The translations under genes were made by a program, and so were the position numbers. Of a DNA stretch of 64,000 bases, positions 1-54,443 are shown in pieces. How positions within the stretch are numbered: position 1 is the first letter of the stretch; each line of letters starts with the position of its first letter. The stretch comes from Candidatus Aldehydirespirator sp. (lineage in GTDB: Bacteria > Actinomycetota > Acidimicrobiia > Acidimicrobiales > Aldehydirespiratoraceae), in assembly GCA_965248735.1 (NCBI GenBank), contig OZ252146.1, positions 3,505,605-3,569,604 on the forward strand. Direction: 5' to 3'. The notes under the pieces are model-generated. The model did not search any database and was not told the origin of the DNA. It worked only from the letters and a program-made list of their open reading frames with translations.

Positions 1-585
1 CGGGTGACGCGCCTGCGTGACTCGTCCACCCCGAATCACGAGTTCAGGCGGCTGCTGCGGGACCTGAGCTCGGTCCTGGTTTACGAGGCGATGCGGCAGG
101 CTCCGCTCGTGCCCGTCAACCTCACCACGCCCATGGGCCCCGCCACCGGCGTGCGCTTCGAGCGCCTCCCGGTGGTGGTGCCGGTGCTGCGGGCCGGCCT
201 GGGGATGCTCGACGCTGCGCTGGAGCTTCTCGGCGACGTGGAGGTGGCGTTCGTGGGGCTCAGGCGCAACGAGAGCACGCTGGTGGCGCGGGAGTATGCG
301 AGCACCCTGCCCGAGGACCTTGAAGGCCGCGATGCGCTGATCCTGGATCCGATGTTGGCCACCGGAGGATCGTGCGTGCACGCCTGCGAGTTGCTGCGGG
401 CCGCGGGAGCGAGCCGGGTCACTGCGGTGTGCGTGATCGCGGCTCCCGAGGGGATCGAGCGGGTCCGAGACTCCGGGTTGGCCGACGCCGTCTGCGTGGC
501 CGCGGTCGACGAATCGCTCGACGAGAACGGGTTCATCCTGCCGGGCCTCGGCGACGCCGGAGACCGCCAGTTCGACCCGCCGTGA
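1..585 (+). CDS. upp: uracil phosphoribosyltransferase, 5' end outside window
   Basis: ORF 4..585. PRPP-binding loop LILDPMLATGGS and C-terminal GFILPGLGDAGDR are typical of Upp. Similarity to Upp begins about 13 residues into the family, so the true start is probably upstream of the window. Confidence 0.9.
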   Translation, partial: RVTRLRDSSTPNHEFRRLLRDLSSVLVYEAMRQAPLVPVNLTTPMGPATGVRFERLPVVVPVLRAGLGMLDAALELLGDVEVAFVGLRRNESTLVAREYASTLPEDLEGRDALILDPMLATGGSCVHACELLRAAGASRVTAVCVIAAPEGIERVRDSGLADAVCVAAVDESLDENGFILPGLGDAGDRQFDPP

Positions 586-745
586 GCCGGACCCTGATGC
601 CAGCCCCGCAGCCGAGCCGGTCATGAGCCGGGCCCTGCCACCAGCCCCGCAGCCGAGCCGGTCGTGAGCCGGGTCCCATCAGCCTCCGCAGCCGGGCCGG
701 TCGTGAGCCGGGTCCCATCAGCCTCCGCAGCCGGGCCGGTCTCGG
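582..745 (+). repeat. tandem repeat (41,41,39,39 nt) built on the upp stop / next-gene start junction
   Basis: Units start at cGTGAgccgg (582), cATGAgccgg (623), cGTGAgccgg (664) and cGTGAgccgg (703). The first unit contains the upp TGA (583-585). Unit heads resemble the GTGAGCCAG start at 771. Relay ORFs run 582..626, 623..667 and 664..756. Confidence 0.9.
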
Positions 746-770
746 CGGTCGCCTGATTCCGGGGAGCGCG

Positions 771-1703
771 GTGAGCCAGCTTGTCGCGGTGGCGCCAGAC
801 ACCCGTCCCGTGATGCACGGCGCCTTCGTGGCCGCGGTGCACGACGCCGGCGGCGACGTGGCGGTGTCGGCGGCGGAGCTGGCCGAGGCCAAGGCCCTGG
901 TCTGGGCCGACCCGTTCGCGCCCCACCTGTACCCGGATGTGGTCGCCTCGGTCCCGGCCGTGGAATGGGTGCAGCTGCCGTTCGCGGGCATCGAGCCGTT
1001 CATCGACTATCTCGACGCACGCCTGGTGTGGGCCTGCGCCAAGGGCGTGTACGCCGACCCGGTGGCGGAGTGGGTCATGGCCGCGCTGCTGATGGGCCTG
1101 CGCGACTTCCATCTGTTCGCCGCGGCCGACTCGTGGTGCGCCGAGACGGGGCGCAACCTGCTGGGCGCCCGAATCACCGTGCTCGGCGGGGGCGGCATAA
1201 CCCGCTCGCTGCTGCGGCTGCTGGAGCCATGGGATTGCCAGGTAACGGTGGTGCGGCGCTCCGGCGAGCCCGTCGAGGGCGCGGCTCGCACGCTGACGCT
1301 CGCTCGGGTGCACGAAGCGGTGGCGGGCGCCGACGCGGTGGTGGTGGCGCTGGCCCTCACCTCCGAGACCCACCATGTGGTGGACGCGGCCCTGCTGGAG
1401 TCCATGGGGCCCCAGTGCTGGGTGGTCAACGTGGCCCGCGGCGGCCATGTCGACCACGGCGCGCTGGGTGCCGCGCTGCGGTCGGGAGCCATTGCGGGAG
1501 CGGTGCTGGATGTGACCGACCCCGAGCCGCTGCCGGACAGCTCCGAGCTGTGGGCGCTGCCCAACTGCGTGATCACCCCCCACATAGGCAACACCCGCGA
1601 CATGGGACTGCCGCTGATCACCAACCGGGTGCGCGAGAACGTGCGCCGCTGGCTGGCCGGCGAGGAGTTGTTGGGCCTGGTCGACATGGCCCTCGGCTAC
1701 TGA
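771..1703 (+). CDS. D-isomer-specific 2-hydroxyacid dehydrogenase (NAD-binding)
   Basis: 310 aa. Rossmann motif VLGGGGITRS, then VVNVARGGHVDHGAL and the catalytic-His region VITPHIGNT typical of the D-2-HADH family. GTG start preceded by GGGGAG. Confidence 0.85.
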   Translation: MSQLVAVAPDTRPVMHGAFVAAVHDAGGDVAVSAAELAEAKALVWADPFAPHLYPDVVASVPAVEWVQLPFAGIEPFIDYLDARLVWACAKGVYADPVAEWVMAALLMGLRDFHLFAAADSWCAETGRNLLGARITVLGGGGITRSLLRLLEPWDCQVTVVRRSGEPVEGAARTLTLARVHEAVAGADAVVVALALTSETHHVVDAALLESMGPQCWVVNVARGGHVDHGALGAALRSGAIAGAVLDVTDPEPLPDSSELWALPNCVITPHIGNTRDMGLPLITNRVRENVRRWLAGEELLGLVDMALGY

Positions 1704-2877: not shown

Positions 2878-3491
2878 ACAAACAGATCTCGGCGACCAGT
2901 GAGGCACCTCCGAACCACGAGTCCTCTCCTGCTGGCGAGTCCGCCATGAGCGCAGAGTCCTCTCCTGCTGGCGAGTCCGCCATGAGCGCAGAGTCCTCTC
3001 CTGCTGGCGAGTCCGCCATGAGCGCAGAGTCCTCTCCTGCTGGCGAGTCCGCCATGAGCGCAGAGTCCTCTCCTGCTGGCGAGTCCGCCATGAGCGCAGA
3101 GTCCTCTCCTGCTGGCGAGTCCGCCATGAGCGCAGAGTCCTCTCCTGCTGGCGAGGCAATCGTCCTCAACGAGACGATCCACCAGCCGACCCGGCTGCGC
3201 ATCATGACGCTGCTCGTCTCCGTGCCGGAAGCAGACCGGCTGGCCTACGGGTTCATCCAGAAGACACTCGGGCTCACCGGCGGAAACCTGACCATCCATC
3301 TGCGCAAGCTTCAGGAAGCGGGCTACCTGTTCATCACCAAGGAGTTCCAAGGCTCCAAGCCCCGCACCTGGGTGCAGGCGACCACCACCGGGCGTCAAGC
3401 CTTCGCCAAGTACCTGTCGAACCTCCAGAGGGCCCTGGGATTGCGTGTTCAAGAAGCCGCTGTCGACGACGGACGGGCAGGTGGGTTGTGA
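2871..3491 (+). CDS. winged-helix (HTH_34/ArsR-like) transcriptional regulator with repetitive N-terminus
   Basis: C-terminal part IHQPTRLRIMTLLV...GFIQKTLGLTGGNLTIHLRKLQEAGYLFI...RTWVQATTTGRQAF matches the wHTH pattern. ATG 2871 overlaps the upstream stop. Confidence 0.75.
   Translation: MVNKQISATSEAPPNHESSPAGESAMSAESSPAGESAMSAESSPAGESAMSAESSPAGESAMSAESSPAGESAMSAESSPAGESAMSAESSPAGEAIVLNETIHQPTRLRIMTLLVSVPEADRLAYGFIQKTLGLTGGNLTIHLRKLQEAGYLFITKEFQGSKPRTWVQATTTGRQAFAKYLSNLQRALGLRVQEAAVDDGRAGGL
2919..3155 (+). repeat. 36-bp in-frame coding tandem repeat (about 6.6 copies, ESSPAGESAMSA)
   Basis: Identical unit gagtcctctcctgctggcgagtccgccatgagcgca repeated head to tail. Each unit carries an in-frame ATG. 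Confidence 0.95.
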
Positions 3492-3759: not shown

Positions 3760-5361
3760 GTGTTCATGGGTATCGAGACGGCACGACGAGTGCGGGATCA
3801 GGTGCGGGAGGGGCTCGCAGAGCTGATCCGGCTCGTCAACGACCCCTCCACGCCGATTGCGGATGTGCGGGAAGTGCTGAGCGCGTCGAAGGCTCTCGGT
3901 GCTCAGGTGTCGGTGCTGCAGGCCGACGCTGCGGTGGTGGTCTCGGCCCGGGAGCGTCACGGTGATTCGGGTGTCGGGGTGCTGGCGCGGTCAGCGGGGC
4001 TGTCGCGGCGGGACGCGGCGGGGCAGGTCCAGACCGCGCAGAGCTTGCAGTCGATGCCCGCGGTGCGCGACGCGGTGGAGACTGGCCAGATCTCTGTTGC
4101 CAACGCCAAGACGCTGGCGAGAGCTTCAGGCAAGACGAGCGCCGACCAGGTCGACGGCGACGCCGAGTTGTTGGAGAAGGCCGCGGAGATGTCTGTCGAG
4201 CAGTTCGCCCGCGAGGCCGGCCGCTGGGCAGTCAAGCGTCAGGACGACGGCGGTGAGGGTGAGTATCGGCGGCAGCGGGCTCGGCGGCGGTTGAGCATTT
4301 GGGACGGCGATGACGGGATGGTGCATCTGCGGGGAGAGCTGGACCCGGTGGCGGGGGCCAAGGTGCGCAAGCGGTTCTTGTTGGAGGCTGAGCGGCTGCG
4401 GCGTGTGGATCTGCGCAGTCCTGGCGGGGAGAAGCGCAGCCTCAACCAGCGCATGGCCGACTCGCTCGACACTCTGACCGAGCACGGAAGCGTCTACTCC
4501 AAGGCCGGAAGCGCGACACCCAGCGGACACGGCCGTGGCGGCACCGGTGTCGCCACCAATGCCAGCAGGGGCGTGAGCGAGTCTGATCGCGGCTCTAGCG
4601 AGGATCGAGGCGGCGTGAGCCAGAACGGCAAGTGTGGTGACGCGAGCCAGGCCAGTGGCGAGGTGAGCCATGCCGAGAGCGCGAGATTGAGCCTGACCAG
4701 TGGTGGCGATGATTCGAGCCGGACAATCGGCGGCGGTAAGTGCGGGTGTGGGGGTCGGCCGTCGGCTGATATCACCATCGTGCAGCATCTCAGCGCGGAT
4801 GGCACCGACGCGTTCGCGGAGATCGCCGGTGGCGGTGTGATCCCCCCGAGCGTGCTCGAGGAGTATTTCTGTAACGCCCGGATCAAAGGGGTGGTGTTCA
4901 GCCATAAGGGTCTGCCTCTGTGGCACAGCCACGCCAAACGGCTCGCCACCAAGGCCCAGATGAGCGCGCTGCGGACCCTCTACGGAGCATGCGGCGGCTG
5001 CGGCGCCGACATGTGGGTATGCCAGGGCCATCACATCAGACCCGTGTCTGAGGGCGGCACGACTGACATTGACAACATGATGTTGTTGTGCTGGGCCTGC
5101 CACCAGAAGGTGCACCACCACGGTTGGCGGGTGGTGCCCGACGGGCGGGGCCCTCACACCATCGCACCGCCTGAGCGGACCCGCTACGGACCCGCACACG
5201 CCCCCGACCCCCCGCCAGCCCACGGGCCCCCGCCCCCGCGCAATACAGCAAGACACCCCGGGGCAGGCTCCATCGCCCGGGCGGCACCCGACCGAGTCAA
5301 CCTGGCCGAAAGCCCCTTGGCCGAAGCCCAGCAGCCCGAGCCGCTGTTCACCCTCGCCTAG
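3760..5361 (+). CDS. DUF222 / HNH endonuclease family protein (REP13E12-like)
   Basis: 533 aa. The N-terminal helical region is typical of DUF222. The C-terminal HNH motif is CGGCGADMWVCQGHHIRPVSEGGTTDIDNMMLLCWACHQKVHH. AT-rich upstream flank. Confidence 0.85.
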   Translation: MFMGIETARRVRDQVREGLAELIRLVNDPSTPIADVREVLSASKALGAQVSVLQADAAVVVSARERHGDSGVGVLARSAGLSRRDAAGQVQTAQSLQSMPAVRDAVETGQISVANAKTLARASGKTSADQVDGDAELLEKAAEMSVEQFAREAGRWAVKRQDDGGEGEYRRQRARRRLSIWDGDDGMVHLRGELDPVAGAKVRKRFLLEAERLRRVDLRSPGGEKRSLNQRMADSLDTLTEHGSVYSKAGSATPSGHGRGGTGVATNASRGVSESDRGSSEDRGGVSQNGKCGDASQASGEVSHAESARLSLTSGGDDSSRTIGGGKCGCGGRPSADITIVQHLSADGTDAFAEIAGGGVIPPSVLEEYFCNARIKGVVFSHKGLPLWHSHAKRLATKAQMSALRTLYGACGGCGADMWVCQGHHIRPVSEGGTTDIDNMMLLCWACHQKVHHHGWRVVPDGRGPHTIAPPERTRYGPAHAPDPPPAHGPPPPRNTARHPGAGSIARAAPDRVNLAESPLAEAQQPEPLFTLA

Positions 5362-5443
5362 CAGCCGGGTAGCACACCCTGGCAGAGCCAACCGAAGCGG
5401 CAGGCGGTTCACGAGCCAACCCGGCCACCGACCAGCCGTAGCT

Positions 5444-7936: not shown

Positions 7937-8793
7937 CGCCGCACTCCTGGACCGTCGGGAGTCACTACCGGCAGACCCCACTCCCCCACGTTCCAGTCGG
8001 CTTCGATCCAGGTGTGCTCGGCCATGAAACACGGCGGCGTGCGGCGATCGTCGTCCTGCAGTTCGCCCGCCAGATAGTTCAGGAAGTACATGTTGGAGCC
8101 AGGGCAGGCGACCGAGGTGTGGTAGCCCTTGGGAACGAGCGCCGCGTCGCCGTCGGATACGACCATGGCGTCGTCGTAGGACTCGTCGTGGCGCCAGTTG
8201 CGGTGGATGGCGTAGCCCTCGGGGCGGTCGAGGCGGAAGTAGTACACCTCCTCCAGGTACGGCGAGCCGTCGCGGCCGTCGTGGCAATGCGGGGGCCAAC
8301 CCGACCAGGTGCCCCGGGGCACGTACACCTCGTAGAGAATCAGGCGCTCCGCGGGCAGCGGATGGGCCAGCGAATGGACCACCTGCCGGTAGGCCTGACC
8401 GCCGCCCCGGATCTCGGTGCGCATCTCCGACGGCTCGAAGACCCGCACCGGATAGCGGCCCTCGGCCGGGGCCGAGCCGACCGACGCCTGCAACCCGGCC
8501 TCCGACTCGATCCGGAAGGGGGTTCCCGGCGGCAGGTACACGATCCGCGCCATCTCTTCGAAGACCGAACTGCGGCTCAACTCCACAAGCATCTCGTCGC
8601 CGACATGAACGCGTCCCTCGCCGGACAACGGCACTATCGCGGTCTCCCGATCAGCCGAGACGCCCGACCACGGCGCGTCCGCAGCCACCTCGACCACGCT
8701 GAACTCCACATAGTCCCAGCCGGCGGACTCAGGCGTCACATGCAGGATCCGGCCAGGCCCGTCAGCGGGCCGCAACAGGGACGAACTGGTCAT
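7933..8793 (-). CDS. iolB: 5-deoxy-glucuronate isomerase
   Basis: KduI/IolB-like sequence across the whole length. ATG 8793 is preceded by AAGGAGG. The track ORF extends to 8859, but that part has no RBS. Confidence 0.88.
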   Translation of the reverse strand: MTSSSLLRPADGPGRILHVTPESAGWDYVEFSVVEVAADAPWSGVSADRETAIVPLSGEGRVHVGDEMLVELSRSSVFEEMARIVYLPPGTPFRIESEAGLQASVGSAPAEGRYPVRVFEPSEMRTEIRGGGQAYRQVVHSLAHPLPAERLILYEVYVPRGTWSGWPPHCHDGRDGSPYLEEVYYFRLDRPEGYAIHRNWRHDESYDDAMVVSDGDAALVPKGYHTSVACPGSNMYFLNYLAGELQDDDRRTPPCFMAEHTWIEADWNVGEWGLPVVTPDGPGVRR

Positions 8794-8943
8794 CGTGATG
8801 CCTCCTTTGCCATGCGACCACACGAAATCAGTAGAGAAACCCGTCATATATCCGCACAAGTCGCACCGAGAATCTGCGAGGCCGCCCGCCGAAGTCGCAA
8901 CCGCGCTCGCAGCGGACCGCGAGACGAGACATCAGCGACGAGC

Positions 8944-9912
8944 TCACGCGGCGGCGAGCCTTCCAGTGGCCCGCTCCCGGCGGAACCGGATCAGCAGCTC
9001 CCGAATGCCGGGCGGCTCGTACCCGAGGACTTCCCTGGTGCGCCGCACGCTGAGACTGGTGTCATAGGGGATCGGGAAATCGCCCACCGCGCCCGCAGCC
9101 GATGTGTCGGGCGGTGTCGAGCTCAGCAGGGCCGGGTCGAGATCGAAGACGTCGCAGGCTATGCGGGCCAGCTCCATACGACCGGTCGACTCGGCCCCGC
9201 AGCAGTGGAAGACCCCGACGGCGGACTCGGCGGCCGCGATGCGCCACATCACCTCGGCGCACTCGCTGGCCAGCGACGGGGTAGCCGCCATGTTGATGTT
9301 GTCGGCCTCCCAGACCGCGAACTGCCGGCCGGCCTCCAGCGCGTCGACGATCGAAGTGACGAAGTAACCGAAGCCGCCGTCCTGCACCCGGGGCGTAGAG
9401 TCCCGCATCCGGTGCATACCGCTGACCGCCGACACCCGGGCCACCGCGGCCCGCCCGGCGCTCAGCATCGCGGCCTGCTCGCTGGCCATCTTGAGCACCC
9501 CGTAGAGATTCACCGGGTTGGGCGGCGTGTCCTCGTCGGCACCGGACTGGGTGCCGTCGAACACCCAGTCGGTGGACACCACGATGAGCTTGGCCCCGAC
9601 CTCGTCGGCCGCCCGGGCCAGAGTCTCGGTGGTGCCGACATAGCTGCGCCAGGCCAGGTCGCGGTCGGCGTACATGGCCGCGAAGTCGTTGAGGATCATC
9701 GAATGCACGATCACATTGGGTCCGAACGCGGCCACGCTGGCCCGCACGGCTCCGTCGTCGAGCAGGTCCAGGCGCTCCGTGGTGAACCCGCTCGATTCAG
9801 CGGGAACGAACCGGTGGACCGGGCAGTGCACGTCGGCTAGGTGGCGCTCGGCGAACACTTTGACAATGTTGGACCCGACGAAGCCGGTGCCTCCGGTCAC
9901 ATAGGCGCGCAC
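8944..9912 (-). CDS. NAD-dependent epimerase/dehydratase (RmlD-like sugar nucleotide-binding protein)
   Basis: N-terminal RAYVTGGTGFVGSNIV Rossmann motif and extended-SDR layout. GTG start. Confidence 0.8.
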   Translation of the reverse strand: MRAYVTGGTGFVGSNIVKVFAERHLADVHCPVHRFVPAESSGFTTERLDLLDDGAVRASVAAFGPNVIVHSMILNDFAAMYADRDLAWRSYVGTTETLARAADEVGAKLIVVSTDWVFDGTQSGADEDTPPNPVNLYGVLKMASEQAAMLSAGRAAVARVSAVSGMHRMRDSTPRVQDGGFGYFVTSIVDALEAGRQFAVWEADNINMAATPSLASECAEVMWRIAAAESAVGVFHCCGAESTGRMELARIACDVFDLDPALLSSTPPDTSAAGAVGDFPIPYDTSLSVRRTREVLGYEPPGIRELLIRFRRERATGRLAAA

Positions 9913-9939
9913 AGCGGCATCTCCCCAGTGGCCATCACC

Positions 9940-10068
9940 GAATTGGCAGTGTTGTGCTCACATACCGTGCAACACACTGCCAATTCCAATCTGCACCCGC
10001 CTGGATCACCCCGTTCGAACCGAACTGGCAGCATTCTGCTCGCAAACCGTGCAACACACTGCCGATTC
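9940..10068 (-). promoter_or_regulatory. two tandem 47-nt inverted-repeat elements between iolG and the epimerase gene
   Basis: 9940-9986 is gaattggcagtgttgtgc-tcacatacc-gtgcaacacactgccaattc. 10022-10068 is gaactggcagcattctgc-tcgcaaacc-gtgcaacacactgccgattc. The right arms are near identical. No U-tract follows. Confidence 0.5.
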
Positions 10069-10099
10069 GCTCGGCGGGAGCAGGCGGGTCGCATCTCTC

Positions 10100-11110
10100 T
10101 CAGCCGATCTCTGAGATGGCCACCGGGCGGCCCTCTCGGACCGAAGCCCACGCGGCCAGACCCATCACCAGCGGGGCGCGCCCGTCGGCCAAACTCACCG
10201 GCGACGGCGCGCCGTTCACCATGGCAACGAAGGCGTCCCACTCGGCCAGATACGACGCGGTGTAGCGCTCCAGGAAGAAGTACGGCAGCGGCGGCCCGTG
10301 GGACCCTTCCGGCCCCCAGTAGAGCGCGGTTGCCGCGGGCGGGTTCTGGGAGGTGGCCATGCCGCCCGAGCCGAACGCCTCCACCCGCTGGTCGTAGCCG
10401 TAGACGGCCCGGCGGCTGTTGTCGATGGTGGTGATGGCGCCGTTGGCATGGGTCACGACCACCACGACGGTGTCGAGGTCGCCGGCCTCGCCTATGGCCG
10501 GATCTACCCGCACCGCGCCGGTTGCGTATACCTCGACCGCCTCGCTGCCGATGACGAACCGAGCCATGTCGAAGTCGTGGATCGTCATGTCGCAGAAGAT
10601 CCCGCCGGACACCTCAATGTAGGCGATGGGCGGCGGGTCGGGGTCGCGGCTGGAGATGCGTACCAGGTGCACGTCGCCCACGTCGCCGGCGGCCACCCGG
10701 TCGCGCACATGGCGGTGGGCCGCGTCGAAGCGGCGGTTGAAGCCCACCTGCACCGCGATCCCGGCCTCGGTCGCCGCCCCGATGCCCCGGTCCACCTCGG
10801 CCAGGTCCAGAGACAGCGGCTTCTCGACGAAGGCAGGCTTGCCCGCGGCCGCGACCTCCACCAACAGGTCCATGTGGGTGTCGGTGGAGCTGCAGATGGC
10901 CACGGCGTCCACGTCGTCAGCCTCGATCAGCTCAGTTGCACTGGACGCCCGCCGGGCGCCGAAGGTCTCCGCGACCGAGATGGCCATGTCGGCAGCAACG
11001 TCGTAGACAGCGGCAAGGGCCGTGCCCGGGACCCTGCGAGCGACCAGGTCGGCGTGCATGGAGCCGATACGCCCACACCCGAGCAGCCCGATGCGCACTC
11101 GTTCACTCAC
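10100..11110 (-). CDS. iolG: Gfo/Idh/MocA oxidoreductase, probable myo-inositol 2-dehydrogenase
   Basis: N-terminal IGLLGCGRIGSMHA and the AFVEKPLS (EKP) motif. GTG 11110 is preceded by GGAGAGGGGAG. iol operon context. Confidence 0.8.
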   Translation of the reverse strand: MSERVRIGLLGCGRIGSMHADLVARRVPGTALAAVYDVAADMAISVAETFGARRASSATELIEADDVDAVAICSSTDTHMDLLVEVAAAGKPAFVEKPLSLDLAEVDRGIGAATEAGIAVQVGFNRRFDAAHRHVRDRVAAGDVGDVHLVRISSRDPDPPPIAYIEVSGGIFCDMTIHDFDMARFVIGSEAVEVYATGAVRVDPAIGEAGDLDTVVVVVTHANGAITTIDNSRRAVYGYDQRVEAFGSGGMATSQNPPAATALYWGPEGSHGPPLPYFFLERYTASYLAEWDAFVAMVNGAPSPVSLADGRAPLVMGLAAWASVREGRPVAISEIG

Positions 11111-11760
11111 CGCGCCGTGCTCCCCTCTCCAGCTCCCCGCAACCAGCCCGACCCGAAGGAGCACTCACCGCGCCGCCTCCCATGGCCCGGATCGTTGTCG
11201 ATCGGCCAGCCTGCATCGCGGCCGGCGCGCTCACCGCGCCTCGGCCTGCTGGCGGGGCGCGAGGAGCGACACCAGCCGGCCGTTACGCCGTCCACGTCGT
11301 AGACCTGCATCGCGGCCGGCGCGCTCACCGCGCCTCCGCCCCTCACGGCCACGGCCACGCCGTCCACGTCGTAGACCTGCATCGCGGCCGGCGCGCTCAC
11401 CGCGCCTCCGCCCCTCACGGCCACGGCCACGCCGTCCACGTCGTAGACCTGCATCGCGGCCGGCGCGCTCACCGCGCCTCCGCCCCTCACGGCCACGGCC
11501 ACGCCGTCCACGTCGTAGACCTGCATCGCGGCCGGCGCGCTCACCGCGCCTCCGCCCCTCACGGCCACGGCCACGCCGTCCACGTCGTAGACCTGCATCG
11601 CGGCCGGCGCGCTCACCGCGGTTCCGCCCCTCACGGCCACGGCCACGCCGTCCACGTCGTAGACCTGCATCGCGGCCGGCGCGCTCACCGCGGTTCCGCC
11701 CCTCACGGCCACGGCCACGCCGTCCACGTCGTAGACCTGCATCGCGGCCGGCGCGCTCAC
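11107..11760 (-). repeat. 72-bp tandem repeat (6 intact copies plus about 218 nt of decayed copies) forming one 217-codon bridging ORF
   Basis: The gctcaccgcg junction motif recurs at 11325, 11397, 11469, 11541, 11613, 11685 and 11757. There are two unit variants (gcctccgcc and ggttccgcc). GTG 11760 overlaps the desaturase TGA. The open frame ends with TGA 11109-11107, which overlaps the iolG GTG 11110. Confidence 0.95.
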
Positions 11761-13214
11761 CGCGGTTCCGCCTGCTGGCGAGGAGCGAGGCGCGACACCA
11801 CCCGCCCGTTGCGCACGGCCACGTCGTAGAGGGTGATCGGCTCCGTCGCCGGGAAGCGCAGGGCCTCCCCGGTGCGCAGGTCGAAGCAGCCGCTGTGCTT
11901 GGGGCACTCGATCATGCCGTCGAGCACGGCTGCCTCGGCGAGGTGGGCCCTCCCGTGGGTGCACAGCCCGTCACTCAGCACGAATTCCGCGGTGGGCTCA
12001 ACGCCCCCGGTCTCGGCATCGACCTCGACCCGGTACAGGGCATAGGTGCTGTCACCGTGGTCCACCCGGCGCGCCGATCCGGGGCTCAGACCCTCGGCCG
12101 CGCCGAGGTCGACCAGCCCGTCGTGCACCTCCCCGGCCCACGCGGTGACCCCCGTGTCCACGAACGACCGCTCCTCGCCGGCGACCTCGGGCACGTCGGG
12201 ACGGGGCTCGTCATAGGACGGGTCGCGCCACTGGCGGCGCAGCGTCGCCAAGATCCGCCGGTAGGCGGTCAGCGTGGACGGATCCGGCGGGGCCAGATAC
12301 TCCTTGATCTCGGCATGGAGCGCCGGCAGCGCGTAGTAGGGCACCGTCGGGAAGATGTGATGCTCGACGTGATAGTTCATGTTGGAGTACAGGAACCTGA
12401 GCACCGGGTTCATGTACACCGTGCGGGAGTTGAGGCGATGGTCGAGCACGTCCTCTCGCAGACCCGCATGCTGCGTGACCGCGAAGAACACCATGAGCCA
12501 GGCCCCGTAGACCGTCGGCAGCCCGATGTACAGTGCCGGCACGATCGAGCCGATGGCCACGCACCACACCGCGGTGCCGGCCAGGACGGCGATGTAGGCC
12601 CGCGACTCCCACTTGAGCTTGCCCAACTCGTCGGCGGGGATAAAGTCCCGGGCGTCGTCGTCGATGCGTCCCGCGGCGTGCTTGAGGGTGCGCCACATAG
12701 CCCGGGGGACGTTCAGCACCGGCACGAACACGCCCAGCACGGCCCGCGGTGACGAGGGACGCGAGAACACGATCTCGGGGTCGCGCCCCACGACGATGGT
12801 GTCGGTGTGATGGCGCACATGCGACCAGCGCCACAGGGTGGGCTGGCGCAGCAGCATGAACGACGCGATGTAGTAGACGACATCGTTGAGCCACTTGGCC
12901 CGGAACGCGGTGCCGTGCCCGCACTCGTGCCAGCGGGAGTCGCCGGCGCCGCCGTAGAGGGCACCGTAGGCCATGAACGCCGGCACCGCCCACCACGAGC
13001 CCAGCGCGCGGAAGGCGAGATAGCCGAAGACGGCCAGCAGACCGAGCCACATGATCGTGTCGCGGGCCGCCCGGGCGTTCGTGCGGACCTGCAGAGCCCG
13101 CAGCCGCTCGGCGTCGATGGGCGGGCGGAACCACTCGGCCTCAATCAGGCCGAGATCCACCGCCCGCCGCGAGTCCGCTCCGGTCAGGCCGTAGTCGCGA
13201 ACGGTCGCGGTCAC
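11757..13214 (-). CDS. membrane fatty-acid-desaturase/hydroxylase-family di-iron protein fused to a C-terminal Rieske [2Fe-2S] domain (MocD+MocE-like)
   Basis: His boxes HECGH, HVRHH and HVEHH lie in a polytopic N-terminal part. C-terminal CTHGRAHLAEAAVLDGMIECPKH fits the Rieske pattern (CxH-16-CxxH). Confidence 0.85.
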   Translation of the reverse strand: MTATVRDYGLTGADSRRAVDLGLIEAEWFRPPIDAERLRALQVRTNARAARDTIMWLGLLAVFGYLAFRALGSWWAVPAFMAYGALYGGAGDSRWHECGHGTAFRAKWLNDVVYYIASFMLLRQPTLWRWSHVRHHTDTIVVGRDPEIVFSRPSSPRAVLGVFVPVLNVPRAMWRTLKHAAGRIDDDARDFIPADELGKLKWESRAYIAVLAGTAVWCVAIGSIVPALYIGLPTVYGAWLMVFFAVTQHAGLREDVLDHRLNSRTVYMNPVLRFLYSNMNYHVEHHIFPTVPYYALPALHAEIKEYLAPPDPSTLTAYRRILATLRRQWRDPSYDEPRPDVPEVAGEERSFVDTGVTAWAGEVHDGLVDLGAAEGLSPGSARRVDHGDSTYALYRVEVDAETGGVEPTAEFVLSDGLCTHGRAHLAEAAVLDGMIECPKHSGCFDLRTGEALRFPATEPITLYDVAVRNGRVVSRLAPRQQAEPR

Positions 13215-13291
13215 TGCGGCATCTCCGCGGTCAACAGTTCCGGGCCCGATTCCGGTCCGGGGAGGCCGTAGTCGCGCACGATCGTCCTCAT
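13211..13291 (-). other. 26-codon relay ORF made of a copy of the desaturase head plus the SDR tail
   Basis: ATG 13291 overlaps the SDR TGA (ATGA). TGA 13213-13211 overlaps the desaturase GTG 13214 (GTGA). The peptide is MRTIVRDYGLPGPESGPELLTAEMPQ; compare the desaturase head MTATVRDYGLTGADS and the SDR tail PGPELGPRPAESGTQP. Confidence 0.5.
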
Positions 13292-14142
13292 GGCTGCGTT
13301 CCCGACTCAGCCGGCCGCGGACCCAGTTCCGGTCCGGGGAACACAGAGTCGCCCGCGCCCAGCACGGTCTGGTCCCACTCCACCACCGCGCCGGTCATCA
13401 TCCCCGACTCGGCCGTGGCCAGATGCACGATCGTGCGGGCGATCTCGGAGGGCTTGATCAGCCGGCCGAAGGGCATCTCGGCCTCGGCCCGCTCCAGCCA
13501 TCCGTCGGTGGCGCCGCCGAAGGTCCGCTGCACGATGTCCTCGGCGGGGGTGTCCATCCATCCCGGGCACAGCAGGTTCACGCGGATCCGGTGGCGCATC
13601 AGCGCGAAAGCCAGGTTGCGGGTCATCGCCACCAGCGCCCCCTTGGAGGTGGCATAGGGCAGCAGCTTCGGCGGGCCTCCCCGACCGGCGATCGAGCCGA
13701 TCAGCACGATGGTGCCCTCGACGGACTCTCGGGCCATGATCCGGGCCACCCCTTGGCTGAGCAGGCCCGGCGCCTTCACGTTGACGGCCAGCATGGCGTC
13801 CCACAGCTCGGGCGTGGCGTCCCACACCGAGCCCCGGTCGGTGACGGCCGCGCAGTTGACGAAGCTGTGGCAGGTGCCGAATCTCTCGTCCAGGGCCACG
13901 ATCACCGTCTCGCAGGCATCGGGATGGGCAAGGTCAGCGGCCACGAACTCCGCCCGGCATTCAGGCGTTCGCAGCGAGGCCGCGGCAGCCTCTCCCTTGG
14001 CCCGGTCCCGACCGACCAGCATGAGCCCGGCCGCCCCCTCCGACACCAATCGCTGGGCCACCGCGTAGCCAAGACCCTGGGAGCCGCCGGTGACCAGCGC
14101 GATTCCACGGCTGAACGAACCAAGAGGACGCGGCTCGGTCAT
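13288..14142 (-). CDS. short-chain dehydrogenase/reductase (SDR)
   Basis: ALVTGGSQGLGYA cofactor motif and classical SDR length. ATG 14142 chosen because everything upstream is the 35-bp repeat. Confidence 0.85.
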   Translation of the reverse strand: MTEPRPLGSFSRGIALVTGGSQGLGYAVAQRLVSEGAAGLMLVGRDRAKGEAAAASLRTPECRAEFVAADLAHPDACETVIVALDERFGTCHSFVNCAAVTDRGSVWDATPELWDAMLAVNVKAPGLLSQGVARIMARESVEGTIVLIGSIAGRGGPPKLLPYATSKGALVAMTRNLAFALMRHRIRVNLLCPGWMDTPAEDIVQRTFGGATDGWLERAEAEMPFGRLIKPSEIARTIVHLATAESGMMTGAVVEWDQTVLGAGDSVFPGPELGPRPAESGTQP

Positions 14143-14425
14143 GCGGCCGCGGTCCCAACCCCGGCAGGCTCGGTCATGCGGCCGCGGTCCCAACCCCGGC
14201 AGGCTCGGTCATGCGGCCGCGGTCCCAACCCCGGCAGGCTCGGTCATGCGGCCGCGGTCCCAACCCCGGCAGGCTCGGTCATGCGGCCGCGGTCCCAACC
14301 CCGGCAGGCTCGGTCATGCGGCCGCGGGTCCCAACCCCGGCAGGCTCGGTCATGCGGCCGCGGTCCCAACCCCGGCAGGCTCGGTCATGCGGCCGCGGTC
14401 CCAACCCCGGCAGGCTCGGTCACCG
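14132..14425 (-). repeat. 35-bp tandem repeat (8 intervals, one of 36) encoding a chain of 7 relay mini-ORFs upstream of the SDR gene
   Basis: Minus-strand unit ATGACCGAGCCTGCCGGGGTTGGGACCGCGGCCGC. Start codons at 14423 (GTG), 14388, 14353, 14317, 14282, 14247, 14212, 14177 and 14142 (SDR). Each 12-aa ORF MTEPAGVGTAAA ends in an ATGA shared with the next start. Confidence 0.95.
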
Positions 14426-14454
14426 ACCCGCGCACCCAGCTCCGCACGACACGG

Positions 14455-16338
14455 TCACCAGCCCACCCGCTGGGCGGCGCGGCCCGCGTCCATCGCCGCC
14501 CTGGCCTCCTTCACCGAGGCGCGGCCGCTCACCTCGGGCACGCCCACCTCCCAGAACGAGCCGCCCTCGGTCCAGCGGTGGGGATGGGTCTTGAGGGCGA
14601 TCACGTAAGTGCGGTCGGAGGCTCTGGCCCGCTCGATGGCCGACTCCAGCTCGGAGATGGAGCCCACCGTCTCGGTCTCGCAGCCCATCGAGGCCGCATG
14701 GGCCGCGAAGTCGACAGCGACCAGCCGCTCGGTGCGGCAGTCCTCGAAGAGATTGTTGAACGAGGCGCCGCCCTGATTGACCTGGAGCCGGTCGATCACC
14801 GCGTAGCCGCCGTTGTCGGCCACGATCACGATGAGCTTGTGCCCGGTGAGCACCGTGCTGTACAGGTCACTGTTCATCATGAGGTAGGAGCCGTCGCCCA
14901 GCAGCACCACCACCTCGCGCTCGGGCATCGCCATCTTGGCGCCCCAGGCGCCTGAGATCTCGTAGCCCATGCACGAGTAGCCGTACTCGCAGTCAAAGGA
15001 ATGCACCGTGCGGGCGCGCCAGCCGTTGACGAGCTCGCCGGGCAGGCCCCCGGCCGCGGCGACGACGTAGGTGGAGGCGTCCGCGGCCCGGTCCACCGCC
15101 CCCACCACCTGGGCGTAGGTGGGCAAGTCGGCGTGAGGGTCCGAAGATCGGTCGCCGCCGGTGGCCGCGACAGTCACTGGCGCGGCGATCTTGTCGATGT
15201 AGGCGTGGTACTGCGCGGTCTCCGACGCAGCCCGCACCGTCCAGTCGCCGCTGGCCCGGTAGTCGCTGAGGGCCGTGCCCAACTCCCGGAGGCCCTCGCG
15301 GGCGTCGGCCACTAGCGGCAGGCACATGTGCTTGGTGGCATCGAAGCGGGCCGCGTTGAGCCCGACGATCTCTGCGGACTCGTCGCCGAACACCGTCCAT
15401 GAGCCGGTGGTGAAGTCCTGCATTCTCGTGCCCACCGCCAGCACCACATCGGCGTCGGCGGCCATGGCGTTGGCCGAGACGCAGCCGGTCACTCCGATGG
15501 GGCCGCAGTTCAGCGGATGGTGCGCCGGCAGTGAGGTGCGGCCCGCGGTGGTCTCTACCACGGGGATGCCGTGGGCTTCGGCGAAGGCGGCGAGCTGCTC
15601 CTCCGCCAGCGACCAGCGCACCCCTCCGCCCGCGATGATGAGGGGGCGCTCGGCTCGGGCCAGCGCAGCCGCGGCCCTTCGCAGCTCGCCCGCGTCGGGG
15701 CGGGGCCGGCGGATGTGGTGCACCCTCTCGGCGAAGAACCCGACCGGATAGTCGTAGGCCTCGGCCTGAACGTCCTGGGGCAGGGCGATGAAGGCCGGGC
15801 CGCAGTCGCCGGGGTCGAGCATGGTGTTGAGAGCCTGGGGCAGCGACTGCACCACCTGCTCGGGGGTGGTGATCCGGTCCCAGTAGCGCACTACCGCCCG
15901 GAAGGCGTCGTTGACGGTGGTGGCCGGCGCCCCGAAGTGCTCCACCTGCTGCAGCACCGGGTCCACGATGCGATGCTCGAAGGTGTCGCCGGCCAGCAGC
16001 AGCAGCGGCAGCCGGTTGGCGAGCGCCACCGCGGCCGCGGTCACCATGTTGGTGGCGCCGGGGCCGATCGAGCTGGCCGCCACCATGATCCGGCGGCGCT
16101 TGGCGGCCCGGGCGAACCCGCAGGCGGCCAGCGCCATCCCCTGCTCGTTCTGGCCCCGCCAGGTGGGCAGCACATCCTGTGCCTGCTCGAGCTCGTGGCC
16201 GAGGCAGGTCACGTTGCCGTGGCCGAATATGGCGAACACGCCCGCGAACAGCGGCACCACCTGACCGTCGACCTCGATGCGCTGGGCAGCCAGGTAGCGC
16301 ACCACGGCGCCCGATGCAGTCAGCCTGATCGTGTCCAC
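14455..16338 (-). CDS. iolD: 3D-(3,5/4)-trihydroxycyclohexane-1,2-dione acylhydrolase (ThDP-dependent)
   Basis: 627 aa with ThDP-enzyme layout and the GDGSYLM cofactor motif. The N-terminus IRLTASGAVVRYLAAQ is typical of IolD. Confidence 0.9.
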   Translation of the reverse strand: MDTIRLTASGAVVRYLAAQRIEVDGQVVPLFAGVFAIFGHGNVTCLGHELEQAQDVLPTWRGQNEQGMALAACGFARAAKRRRIMVAASSIGPGATNMVTAAAVALANRLPLLLLAGDTFEHRIVDPVLQQVEHFGAPATTVNDAFRAVVRYWDRITTPEQVVQSLPQALNTMLDPGDCGPAFIALPQDVQAEAYDYPVGFFAERVHHIRRPRPDAGELRRAAAALARAERPLIIAGGGVRWSLAEEQLAAFAEAHGIPVVETTAGRTSLPAHHPLNCGPIGVTGCVSANAMAADADVVLAVGTRMQDFTTGSWTVFGDESAEIVGLNAARFDATKHMCLPLVADAREGLRELGTALSDYRASGDWTVRAASETAQYHAYIDKIAAPVTVAATGGDRSSDPHADLPTYAQVVGAVDRAADASTYVVAAAGGLPGELVNGWRARTVHSFDCEYGYSCMGYEISGAWGAKMAMPEREVVVLLGDGSYLMMNSDLYSTVLTGHKLIVIVADNGGYAVIDRLQVNQGGASFNNLFEDCRTERLVAVDFAAHAASMGCETETVGSISELESAIERARASDRTYVIALKTHPHRWTEGGSFWEVGVPEVSGRASVKEARAAMDAGRAAQRVGW

Positions 16339-29895: not shown

Positions 29896-32800
29896 TTGTC
29901 TCTGACGTCTTGCGCAAGGAATCCGCCGGGGGGTGTGGGCGTGCGTGAGCGACCGCGCCGACAGGTGTCGGTGGCGGCGCTGCTGACCGCGGCGCTCCTG
30001 GCCGTGGCCGCGCCGACGCCTGCTCACGCCGACTCGCATCCGGTGGTGACGGTGGCTGCGGGCACGGTGCCGAACACGTTCAGCGCCACCGACGACGACC
30101 CGCACGACACCACCTGGCACTACGCGTGGATCACCGGCAGCGACCCGTGCGGGCCCTCGACCACGTTCCCGTCTGCGCAGACCTACGCCGAGGGCAACGA
30201 CGTCTCCTATGGCACCAGCAACCTCGGCCAGAGGCTGTGCTTGCGCGCCGTGGACTCCAGCAGCAACACGGGCTACGCCACGTCGGACATCGTCGACCAC
30301 CTGGCCCCACCCAGGGTCCCGTTCCGAATCGGCGAGATCATGGCCACGCCCGGCGACGAGTCGGTCACCCTCACATGGGAGGCGCCCTACGACGGCGGCT
30401 CGCCCATCACCCAATACGTAGTCCTCAGCAACCCACCAGGCGGCCTCTGCATCACCAGCGTCCCGGGCTGCACCATGACCGGGCTCGCCAACGGCACCGC
30501 CTACGACTTCGAGGTGAGCACCTTCAACGCTATTGGCTACGAAGACTCCTTCTTCCCGCTACAAGTCACACCCACCGCCGACCCACCGGCCACAGACCCA
30601 CCAGCCACAGACCCACCGGTGACCGACCCACCGGCCACAGACCCACCAGCCACAGACCCACCGGTGACCGACCCACCGGCCACAGACCCACCGGCCACAG
30701 ACCCACCGGTGACAGACCCACCAGCCACAGACCCACCGGTGACCGACCCACCAGCCACAGACCCACCGGTGACCGACCCACCAGCCACAGACCCACCGGT
30801 GACCGACCCACCAGCCACAGACCCACCGGTGACCGACCCACCAGCCACAGACCCACCGGTGACCGACCCACCAGCCACAGACCCACCGGTGACCGACCCA
30901 CCAGCCACAGACCCACCGGTGACCGACCCACCAGCCACAGACCCACCGGTGACCGACCCACCAGCCACAGACCCACCGGTGACCGACCCACCAGCCACAG
31001 ACCCACCGGTGACCGACCCACCAGCCACAGACCCACCGGTGACCGACCCACCGGTGACCGACCCACCGGCCACAGACCCACCGGCCAAAGACCCACCGGT
31101 GACCGCACCAGGCGGAAGCGGAGGCAGTGGGTCCTCGGGCGGCGACGGTGAGCGCGCCGCGCGGACTACGGAAACGACGACGCTGTCGGGCATCACCGTC
31201 GATGGGACCGCGATCCCCGACTTCGATGCGGAGCGGGACTCGTACACGGTCGGGCTCGCCAACGGCGTGGCCACCGCGACCGTGGCGGCCACACCGACCG
31301 CGAGCTCCGCCACCGTGACGTGCTCGGTCGATGCCGATGGCAATGCGGCCGGATGCCAGGTCGCGCTCACGGCGGGCGCGGGAGTCGACCTGACCCTGAC
31401 CGTGACCGATAGCTCGGCAACGATGGACTACACGCTCACGCTCAACCGCGGCCTGACCGGCACCTTCGCGTGGAAGGCGTCCGACGACATCTACGGCCTG
31501 GCCGCCGTGCTTGGAGAAAACACCAGCAGGACGAGGGGCATTTGGAGCGACGGCACCACGTTGTGGGTCGCCGACAATGACCGAAGGAATTCGAAGCTGG
31601 TCGCCTTCAACCTCGAAACCAAGGCACGACAGTCGCTCAACGACATCAACACGGGTGCGAGCGACCTTCTTCATGTGCGCAGGCCGGTGGGCGTCGCGGG
31701 AACTGACGACGGCTCGGTGCTGGTCGCCCGCAGACACAACGGACTCACTGAACAGGCCAGGATTCAAGGATTCCGTCGAAACGACGCATCAGAGTGGCAG
31801 CCCGACATCGAGGAGAGCTATGTACTGCCGTCCGATATTATTCTTGCTCCGTCAATCAGAGGCATCTGGACTCACGGAGAACGGCTGTATATCGCCGACG
31901 ATAGCTCAGACAATGCGGTCTTGGCATTCACCTGGAACTCTGACCGCTCCAACATGGTGCACGATTCCCCCGGGGACATCACTCTCGCCAGCGAGAACGA
32001 CAGTCCGGCCGGCATATGGTCCGACGGCGAGACGATATGGGTCGCCGACGCCCTGACGGAACGAATCTTTGCCCACAAGACGGTCGACGGCCAGCGTGAC
32101 ACCGCCAAGGAGTTCACCCAGAGCCACCTGACCGTGAAGGACACTCCCATCAAACCCTGGGGCATCTGGTCCGACGGCGAGACGATGTGGGTAGTCGACC
32201 GCGGCACCGCGATCGTCTACTCCTTCAACCTGCCGGTGTCGAACAACCCGGGGCTGAGTCAGCTCGAGGTTCAGCACGGGGAGGATCCTGTCGAGCTCAG
32301 TGTGGCCGAGACCACGCACACGGTGGTGCTGCCGGGCAGTCCGACCTCGACAACGTTGACGATTGCGCCGCGCAACCGCTTCGCGACCGTAGACGTCCTC
32401 CCGGCCGATGCCAACCTCAGCCTCGGCGGGTACCAGGTCGACCTGACCGGCGGCCCGGTCGAGGTCACGATCACGGTGACCGCGGCCGACGCCACAACAA
32501 GGCAGGTCTACACGGTCACGGTCGGGCCCGCGCCACTCGAGATCACGAGCGTCATCGCGACGCCCAACACCCGTCTGCTGCAGGTGAGCTGGCACGAACC
32601 GTCGAACAGCGCGACCTTGGGCGTGACCGCCTACGACTTGCGCTACGCACGCACCGACGCAGACAACCTCGAGAACGACGACCAGTGGACCGTGATCGAC
32701 GATGTCTGGACCACGGGCGGCGGCGACCTCTCCTACATCCTCAGGGGATTGACCAACGGTCAGGCCTACTACGTCCAGGTGCGCGCGGTCAACGCCCTGC

Positions 32801-53453: not shown

Positions 53454-54320
53454 CTACCTCACACCCGCCACGACCACCGCAGGCTTCGCGCCCTCTCGAA
53501 ACGGCTCGTAGACCGCGAGCAGTCCGCCCTCGGAGTCGTGCACCGCCCACGGGCCGGCGCCCGCCGCGCCCAGGCGGTCGAGGTCCAGAACCCGGCCGTG
53601 GGCCACCTCCGCGGCCACTGCGGGACCCACCCGCACACCCGACAAGTGCTCGACGGACCTCGACATCGGCAGGACCTCGGGCGACTCCACCGGACGGGCC
53701 TGAGCCAGCCCGAAGCCTCCCACCGCGGTGCGGCGGAGGCATCTCAAGTGGGCGCCCCCTCCGAGCGCCCGGCCCAGATCCGCGGCCAGCACCCGCACGT
53801 AGGTGCCCGACGAGCACTCCACGGCGGCGCGGAGCACGCCCTCGCGGCCTGGCGCTGAGGCCACCTCGAAGCGGTAGACCGTGACGGGCCGCGGCTTGCG
53901 CTCCACCTCCACACCCTCCCTGGCCAGCTCGTGGAGCCTCCGCCCTCCCACCTTCACCGCCGAGACCATGGGCGGCACCTGAAGGATGTCGCCGGTCAAC
54001 GAGGCGGCCGCTTGGCGCGCTTGAGTCTCGCTCACGCCGTCCATCCGGTGGCGTGCCGTCACCCGTCCCGCCGAATCGAGGGTGTCGGTCTCGACTCCGA
54101 GCACGATCTCCGCCTCGTAGCTCTTGGGCAGCTCGGTGAGGAACCGCAGCAGCCGGGTGGCCCGGCCGATTCCGAGCACGAGAACTCCGGTGGCGTCGGG
54201 ATCGAGGGTGCCGCTGTGCCCCACCTTGCGGGTGCCCAGCACGCCCCTCGCCTTGGCCACCACGTCATGGCTGGTCCACCCCGCCGGCTTGTCTATTACT
54301 GCGATCCCGTCAAGCAGCAT
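53454..54320 (-). CDS. truB: tRNA pseudouridine(55) synthase
   Basis: HSGTLDPDATGVLVLG catalytic motif. Synteny with rbfA and ribF. Confidence 0.92.
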   Translation of the reverse strand: MLLDGIAVIDKPAGWTSHDVVAKARGVLGTRKVGHSGTLDPDATGVLVLGIGRATRLLRFLTELPKSYEAEIVLGVETDTLDSAGRVTARHRMDGVSETQARQAAASLTGDILQVPPMVSAVKVGGRRLHELAREGVEVERKPRPVTVYRFEVASAPGREGVLRAAVECSSGTYVRVLAADLGRALGGGAHLRCLRRTAVGGFGLAQARPVESPEVLPMSRSVEHLSGVRVGPAVAAEVAHGRVLDLDRLGAAGAGPWAVHDSEGGLLAVYEPFREGAKPAVVVAGVR

Positions 54321-54443
54321 CAGCTGGCGGGATCCGCAGCGCGGGCCATACCGTCGAGCACTGTCAGCTCTCCGGATCGGCGGCGCCGGCCATACCGTCG
54401 CTCTCCGGATCCGCAGCGCGGGCCATACCGTCGAGCACTGTCA
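54320..54443 (-). repeat. duplicated rbfA/truB junction (77 + 41 nt) with two relay mini-ORFs
   Basis: GTG 54438..TGA 54364 encodes VLDGMARAADPESDGMAGAADPES. GTG 54361..TGA 54320 encodes VLDGMARAADPAS. The last TGA shares its A with the truB ATG. Heads resemble the truB start MLLDGI and tails resemble the rbfA end LLDGMAGAADPES. Confidence 0.85.

Follow-up and report, generated by a model that had tools for sequence, protein, structure and literature searches.

A strain-variable tandem array at the iolD-SDR gene junction of a Candidatus Aldehydirespirator genome forms an unbroken chain of short open reading frames

The window analyzed here is a 64,000-nt stretch of DNA (G+C content, 69%) from Candidatus Aldehydirespirator sp. 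(GenBank assembly GCA_965248735.1, contig OZ252146.1, positions 3,505,605 to 3,569,604), and its subject is the junction between two consecutive minus-strand genes, iolD and a short-chain dehydrogenase/reductase (SDR) gene, which is filled by a tandem repeat. The upstream gene (14455-16338, minus strand) encodes an iolD-like thiamine-pyrophosphate enzyme of 627 aa with the Pfam domains TPP_enzyme_N/M/C and ends in a TGA at 14457-14455; the downstream gene (13288-14142, minus strand) encodes an SDR protein of 284 aa with the Pfam domain adh_short, starting at ATG 14142. In a search limited to one genome per species, iolD homologues 66 to 91% identical were found in 80 loci, all of them in Acidimicrobiia-like metagenome-assembled genomes. 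The closest loci belong to sponge-associated Candidatus Aldehydirespirator and its relatives (for the family context of the sponge-associated relatives, see PMC11706023), and in most of the 80 loci the SDR gene comes after iolD. The SDR start MTEPRPLG, which the first-pass annotation of this DNA had assigned to the last ATGA of the repeat, agrees with the N termini of homologues (MTEQRPSFF in locus L002 and VTEPQDF in locus L065), and the protein falls within a 90%-identity cluster of 49 sequences. An exact look-up of the window SDR and IolD proteins gave no match in a contig index built from a collection without the source genome.

Tandem Repeats Finder detected the repeat at 14132-14422, with a period of 35, 8.3 copies, and 99% matches. 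Read on the minus strand, eight near-identical units, (A/G)TGACCGAGCCTGCCGGGGTTGGGACCGCGGCCGC, stand head to tail at 14143-14423, seven of them 35 nt long and one 36 nt long. Their heads, (A/G)TGACCGAGCC, lie at 14423 (a GTG), 14388, 14353, 14317, 14282, 14247, 14212, and 14177, and the same head appears once more at 14142 as the SDR start itself, where the SDR gene opens with 11 nt (ATGACCGAGCC, 14132-14142, minus strand) that make up a partial ninth copy. Repeat finder and head positions thus agree with the eight junction copies of 35-nt period first annotated on this strand ahead of the SDR gene, and the partial copy bears out the equation of the unit head with the SDR 5′ end made at the same time. 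The single 36-nt unit (GGGACCCGCGG, 14318-14353, minus strand) has one extra C, a G on the plus strand. At three or fewer mismatches the unit was matched seven times (the 36-nt unit escapes a gapless search), against no match in 100 shuffles; the repeat itself is far beyond chance. The unit has no second locus within the 64-kb window. The units abut without spacers, which excludes a CRISPR array.

Ahead of the eight units lies an older, diverged 35-nt copy, designated unit 0 (GTGACCGTGTCGTGCGGAGCTGGGTGCGCGGGTCG, 14424-14458, minus strand). Its GTG overlaps the iolD stop (GGTGA), so that the tetranucleotide GTGA at 14455-14458 (minus strand) forms the entry point of what we call the relay, and its 12-aa open reading frame (ORF), VTVSCGAGCAGR (14458-14420), closes in the GTGA at 14423. 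Chain tracing then recovered seven mini-ORFs linked by NTGA (14139-14423, minus strand), located at 14423-14385, 14388-14350, 14353-14279, 14282-14244, 14247-14209, 14212-14174, and 14177-14139. Their peptides, MTEPAGVGTAAA, are all 12 aa long except the third, and each ends at the TGA of the following ATGA. The exception arises at the 36-nt unit, whose ATG is in frame with the next ATG, yielding a 24-aa ORF that spans two units. The chain has no gap between the iolD stop and the SDR start, and at nine of nine links neighboring frames overlap by 4 nt (-4, as GTGA or ATGA). The frame of each ATG ends at the TGA of the unit that follows because start and stop are combined as ATGA in every unit and 35 is of the class 3n+2. 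The ATGA-linked 12-aa mini-ORFs of the first-pass annotation, and the fusion of two of them into 24 aa by an extra plus-strand G in the unit at 14353-14318, are therefore real. Its first copy does use GTG at 14423, placed 31 rather than the annotated 30 nt from the iolD stop. The chain itself had been begun too late, at that GTG; the overlooked unit 0 (14458-14424) puts its start at the iolD stop.

The array RNA folds with a minimum free energy of -228.7 kcal/mol, versus -211.8 for shuffles (z = -2.6), a moderately unusual value, and its units pair through the palindrome GCGGCCGC. A scan for sigma-70-type consensus promoters and for terminators found no promoter-like site in the array and no terminator-like site in or after it, and Rfam at a permissive threshold gave no match in 13000-15500; the lack of a terminator-like site and of an Rfam match led us to reject a leader-peptide attenuator. 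Plus-strand ORFs over the array (e.g., 13423-14955) were also set aside; codon-position GC content gives them no support, and they are taken to be shadow ORFs of a high-GC genome.

The origin of the unit is apparent from relatives in which the junction is plain. GTGA joins iolD and the SDR gene directly in L065 (...GGGCTGGTGACCGAACC...) and in L096, where iolD occupies 8124-10004 and the SDR gene 10001-10846, i.e., with a 4-nt overlap; six co-directional junctions of the compact L096 operon are -4 overlaps. In L081, GTGA heads the first unit. The window unit head, GTGACCGAGCC, is exactly the 4-nt-overlap junction of L065 and L096, and the array is therefore a tandem duplication of such a junction. 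On these comparisons the ancestral iolD/SDR junction was evidently a 4-nt GTGA overlap, which distant and compact relatives have kept. For the 24-nt tail of the unit, resemblance to the iolD 3′ end is not significant (z = 0.3), and the match to the second copy of the iolD tail in L011 is only weak (z = 2.9).

To compare the array among relatives, we used contigs that encode members of the SDR 90%-identity cluster, with DNA identity to the window of 96 to 98% for the independent long-read assemblies L081, L088, and L102 to L104 and ~87% for L002. The close relatives (96 to 98%) carry 2, 4, 5, or 8 units, with unit lengths of 34, 35, or 36 nt. Unit by unit, the window has unit 0 and then 35, 35, 36, 35, 35, 35, 35, and 35 nt; L103 and L104, from two samples, unit 0 and then 35, 35, 36, and 35 nt; L088, unit 0 and then eight units, all of 36 nt; L102 (125× coverage), five units that fall into two types and begin with one of 34 nt; L081, two 35-nt units and no unit 0; and L002, unit 0 and then 36, 36, 36, and 35 nt. 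Orthologues of unit 0 are present in L002, L088, L102, L103, and L104. The 36-nt variant of the window (14318-14353) is the type of all eight L088 units. In seven of seven sequences an unbroken chain connects the iolD stop with the SDR start, the L088 form being an in-frame fusion of 394 aa. The array is real and polymorphic between strains. Its copy number, which the first-pass annotation had wanted confirmed, does not collapse in independent assemblies (in L088, too, eight units follow unit 0), and the polymorphism that annotation had suggested looking for is present in assemblies 96 to 98% identical.

Two of these alleles have further structure. In L102 (9828-9989), copies of the unit-0 type and of the unit type alternate in a 70-nt higher-order repeat, and owing to the 34-nt first unit, the first relay ORF extends over three units (35 aa) and only then meets a GTGA. 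In L088 (10263-10340), the SDR 5′ coding region contains an ~42-nt duplication (CCTCTTGGTTCGTTCAGCCGT twice), and the gene caller gives an SDR protein of 382 aa. Other material says less about the array. The P0121 group (L082 to L087) has an unrelated, nonrepetitive 211-nt spacer at the iolD/SDR junction and is uninformative. The short-read contigs L089 to L101 are without arrays, which is not readable as absence since short reads cannot assemble them.

To determine how special the relay is, we simulated all single duplications that can span six real junctions with 4-nt overlaps in L096. The relay was kept in 99% of duplications with a 3n+2 period, an in-frame N-terminal fusion resulted in 69% of those with a 3n period, and the path was broken in 81% of those with a 3n+1 period. 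The relay is an automatic by-product of a 3n+2 duplication over a 4-nt overlap, not a special design. The first-pass annotation had called it unusual for a period that is not a multiple of three to yield a phased relay. That judgment fails on the simulation and on three further counts: the same pattern occurs at many other junctions of the clade, the logic is known from mycobacterial interspersed repetitive units (MIRUs; PMC12548453, PMC3184786), and the phase is not fixed, as L088 demonstrates.

The 64-kb window holds at least four further arrays at junctions or gene starts, and about 14 more were found in related genomes. Within the same operon as iolD and the SDR gene, the junction from a Rieske/FA_desaturase gene to a GFO/IDH/MocA gene contains a 72-nt unit in 6.8 copies (11285-11772; 99% identical). 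A 217-aa ORF bridges this array (bridging stretch 11110-11760, minus strand), entering by a GTGA with the Rieske/FA_desaturase stop at 11760 and leaving by a GTGA that overlaps the GFO/IDH/MocA GTG at 11110. In L081, L084, L086, and L087 this junction consists simply of an ATGA overlap; it has a 189-nt insert in L082 and L085 and holds 2.7 repeats in L088, compared to 6.8 in the window. The first three window units read GGCGGAACCGCGGTGA and later ones GGCGGAGGCGCGGTGA, a change that yields a GGAGG Shine-Dalgarno sequence. The bridging ORFs of this array have been called as genes of 62 aa (L088, 12677-12865) and 97 aa (L102 and L103, 12383-12676), neither of which hits Pfam; in this way, ORFs generated by a repeat can end up in protein databases as hypothetical proteins.

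The other window arrays take various forms. Between upp and a 2-hydroxyacid dehydrogenase gene (582-773, plus strand), units of 41, 41, 39, and 39 nt give ORFs of 14, 14, and 30 aa linked by GTGA/ATGA; the final step involves no overlap but a GGGAG Shine-Dalgarno sequence with a GTG at 771. In a housekeeping operon, the rbfA 3′ end is duplicated in a nested 44/77-nt pattern at the rbfA-truB junction (54318-54443, minus strand), where short ORFs are joined by +2 spacing and, at the truB start, by a TGATG overlap. A perfect 36-nt array of 6.6 copies (2919-3155, plus strand) includes the ATG of an HTH_34 regulator gene; all of its ATGs are in frame, and the repeats, MSAESSPAGESA, read into the gene. 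Relatives have 3.4 copies there (L081) or 5.3 copies of a different 36-nt unit (L082 to L086).

Across the clade, independent arrays occupy the iolD/SDR junction itself in L014 (54 nt in 5 copies, derived from the iolD 3′ end) and L011 (38 nt in 2 copies). Neighboring junctions have arrays in L016 (71 nt in 4.9 copies and 68 nt in 2), L014 (74 nt), L005 (50 nt), L013 (65 nt in 2 copies), L008 (77 nt), L003 (51 nt), and L070 (35 nt in 2.5 copies). Relays were found in both L016 arrays, in the L014 74-nt array, in L013, L070, and L008, and in the window at 582-773 and 54318-54443. The L016 unit is plainly an upstream C terminus, GTGA, and a downstream N terminus. Among units of 16 arrays from different loci, no significant mutual similarity was detected except between variants of the same locus. 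In the neighboring Poriferisocius clade, 17 loci covering the same operon, many of them from complete chromosomes, contain no such array, so that the tendency is clade specific and not a technical effect.

Some further repeats were noted nearby. In L014, near-perfect arrays also occupy ordinary intergenic spacers of the same operon (13807-14077, 72 nt in 3.8 copies; 15068-15301, 60 nt in 3.9 copies), making four arrays within 6 kb. A 5,967-aa ORF in the window (29896-47799, plus strand) contains coding repeats of 30 nt in 17.5 copies (30580-31105) and 192 nt in 2.8 copies (47103-47643). An HNH/DUF222 gene adjoins the operon (window 4126-5412, minus strand; also in the downstream regions of L081, L082, L088, and L102) and encodes 474 to 533 aa across relatives, with a 63-nt repeat in 2.3 copies inside the L102 gene.

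The periods of the 19 arrays outside genes fall into 11 of class 3n+2, 8 of class 3n, and none of class 3n+1. With equal classes, the chance of zero 3n+1 periods is (2/3)^19 = 4.5e-4. If survival were proportional to path keeping in the simulation, the expected ratio of 3n+2 to 3n to 3n+1 would be about 10:7:2, versus 11:8:0 observed. The absence of one class suggests that duplications survive only if a translational path is kept. The census is small, one operon is overrepresented in it, and its arrays are not all independent; the period pattern is therefore treated as suggestive only.

We consider the array to be a hypervariable tandem duplication, i.e., a minisatellite or variable-number tandem repeat (VNTR), of a translationally coupled gene junction, a reading to which we give a probability of roughly 0.6. 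A 35-nt segment comprising the GTGA overlap and 11 nt from the SDR 5′ end was duplicated and then expanded and contracted by slippage or unequal recombination. A ribosome ending iolD would start again at the overlapping codon, translate 12 aa, stop, and repeat this cycle until it arrives at the SDR start. In this way the relay would maintain the translational path from iolD to the SDR gene, probably with some loss at each step, and would be the condition letting the duplication survive rather than a purpose-built device. The mini-ORF peptides are probably meaningless. Before the unit ATGs and the SDR ATG, the predicted duplex with the anti-Shine-Dalgarno sequence reaches -6.2 kcal/mol, which is at background level, compared to -10 to -12 kcal/mol for neighboring genes with GGAGG. 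With no real Shine-Dalgarno sequence at the SDR start, dependence on upstream translation is plausible, and the handing over of ribosomes from iolD to the SDR gene is the best-supported reading of the sequence. The strong RNA self-pairing between units fits a need for translating ribosomes to open it. Use of the relay by ribosomes and selective removal of path-breaking arrays are both inferred.

Several observations weigh against this interpretation, besides the size of the period census. An NTGA tetranucleotide holds a start codon for three of the four possible bases at N. Among dinucleotide shuffles of the spacer with both NTGA ends fixed, 29% also give an unbroken chain; TGA is the common stop here and forms a start codon with three of four preceding bases. 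Single-locus significance of the relay is ruled out by this result. Since the chain persists automatically in any mixture of 35- and 36-nt units, finding it intact in seven alleles argues only weakly for selection, and phase is not conserved, with L088 having eight in-frame 36-nt units. Nine successive reinitiations could pass very few ribosomes. Codon-phase-matched microhomology could act as a mutational bias toward 3n+2 periods, although such a bias would not separate 3n from 3n+1 (8 versus 0). Finally, the 35/36 difference between the window and L088 comes down to a CC/CCC run in each unit, and such runs are typical sites of sequencing error.

The most probable alternative is a neutral slippage repeat tolerated in a symbiont genome, in which the mini-ORFs have no effect and the SDR gene initiates independently at its own ATG. 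It gains from the shuffled spacers, from the free variation of copy number and unit length in close relatives together with the absence of the array from most relatives, and from peptide sequences that differ at every locus. We nevertheless think it unlikely, given that the SDR ATG lacks a real Shine-Dalgarno sequence, that the ancestral -4 overlap is a classic coupling arrangement, and that none of the 19 arrays is of the 3n+1 class, which breaks the path in 81% of simulated duplications.

An adaptive rheostat, the idea of the first-pass annotation, would make copy number a heritable, fast-mutating setting of the SDR:IolD ratio, with strain differences due to selection. Conspecific assemblies do carry 2, 4, 5, or 8 units, the second array of the same operon is polymorphic too, and in Mycobacterium tuberculosis the length of the rnc-fpg VNTR correlates with fpg mRNA level (PMC2734929). 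The variation looks unconstrained, however: units measure 34, 35, or 36 nt, the L088 allele is in frame, and many relatives lack the array altogether. The similar arrays at unrelated junctions such as rbfA-truB point to a mutational tendency of the genome rather than to adaptation of this locus. We therefore regard the rheostat as very unlikely.

Two further explanations are barely tenable. That the repeat encodes an N-terminal extension of an SDR protein starting inside the array draws on L088, where the GTG of unit 1 is in frame with the SDR gene across the eight 36-nt units (a 394-aa ORF, called at 382 aa), yet it is extremely improbable for the window, where a stop at 14211-14209 closes the SDR frame and leaves only a TTG upstream of ATG 14142, seven of eight units are 35 nt, and homologues begin MTE(P/Q) right after iolD. 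A wrong copy number or unit length from assembly or sequencing is scarcely credible either: near-perfect repeats are error prone in assembly, the CC/CCC run differs as described, and an exact search with a 25-nt piece of the unit found no match in Joint Genome Institute (JGI) metagenome contigs, but six other assemblies, which come from different samples and include one at 125×, also have the array, and 35-nt units recur in L081, L102, L103, and L104, with flanking genes intact in all these assemblies.

Among known systems, MIRUs come closest to the array as we interpret it. They form one dispersed family of ~40 to 50 related copies per genome, believed to be mobile and showing both tetranucleotide direct repeats and imperfect terminal inverted repeats (Supply et al. 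1997, cited via PMC3184786, PMC12548453, and PMC4213456), and their units measure 40 to 100 bp, with classic sizes of 77 and 53 bp (PMC3184786, PMC12548453, PMC4213456). Like them, the present units are short, GC rich, often in tandem, and located between co-directional operon genes of a high-GC actinobacterium (here iolD and the SDR gene, on the same strand). The ends of the unit ORF overlap the neighbors' stop and start at -4 nt, which keeps coupling (here GTGA or ATGA at every step), copy number is strain variable, and 77 and 53 bp are likewise 3n+2. The differences are that the present units are locus specific and appear to derive from the local junction, without a dispersed family; that they are 35 to 36 nt long, below the 40- to 100-bp range, with sister arrays at 38 to 77 nt; and that the host is a member of the Acidimicrobiia from a mostly sponge-associated clade, not a mycobacterium. 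As to signs of transposition, the units are flanked by the 11-nt repeat of the junction head, and sister units (L016, L014) are plainly local sequence. A dispersed, mobile MIRU-like family is ruled out because units differ between loci. Given the lack of such a family, the length below 40 bp, and the apparently local origin in another bacterial class, the array is not a MIRU.

VNTR3239/ETR-F of the M. tuberculosis complex, the rnc-fpg repeat mentioned above, resembles the array in being a locus-specific tandem repeat that fills a junction of only 1 to 6 bp in related species and in being strain polymorphic with a proposed effect on downstream expression (PMC2734929). It differs in starting 40 bp after the rnc stop, with no ORF relay described, and in that its reported effect is on mRNA level. 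Coupling at -4 overlaps, by termination-reinitiation or ribosome scanning, and short ORFs delivering ribosomes downstream are established (reviewed in PMC12548453). In keeping with that literature, each link here is an NTGA overlap of the canonical kind, and no strong Shine-Dalgarno sequence precedes the downstream start, whereas known cases comprise one step between two genes and the present chain up to nine, through peptides that are probably functionless. In-frame 5′ coding minisatellites are matched by the L088 allele (8 × 36 nt) and by the window array at 2919-3155, both of which read into the downstream gene; the window iolD-SDR array, in contrast, is out of the SDR frame in seven of eight units. 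The array does have the properties of a bacterial VNTR or minisatellite, with head-to-tail units of at least 10 nt and copy number differing between close strains. It is not a phase-variable contingency locus, as gain or loss of a 35-nt unit leaves both genes intact and the chain unbroken, and only a change from 35 to 36 nt switches between relay and fusion. In the literature, no paper was found on such arrays in sponge-associated Acidimicrobiia.

The interest of these arrays lies mainly in the clade-wide pattern and the missing 3n+1 class, not in the iolD/SDR locus alone. In practical terms, they are visible in long-read assemblies only, serve as strain markers (VNTRs) for these symbionts, and mislead gene callers, as seen in the 382-aa SDR call of one relative and in the 62-aa and 97-aa "genes" that are bridging ORFs. 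On a far-reaching view, speculative and quite unlikely as a whole, coupled junctions in the mostly sponge-associated Aldehydirespiratoraceae would be a genome-wide hotspot of local minisatellites in which only path-keeping periods survive (3n+2 as relay, 3n as fusion), providing a natural library of 1- to 9-step reinitiation ladders that cells may use as heritable, fast-mutating settings of operon protein ratios. If the relay is used, the arrays are natural constructs with one to nine termination-reinitiation steps and could show how much ribosome flux survives each step, a quantity on which the translational-coupling field has yet to agree. The missing 3n+1 periods, in turn, would be population-genetic evidence for selection on 4-nt-overlap coupling in uncultured bacteria.

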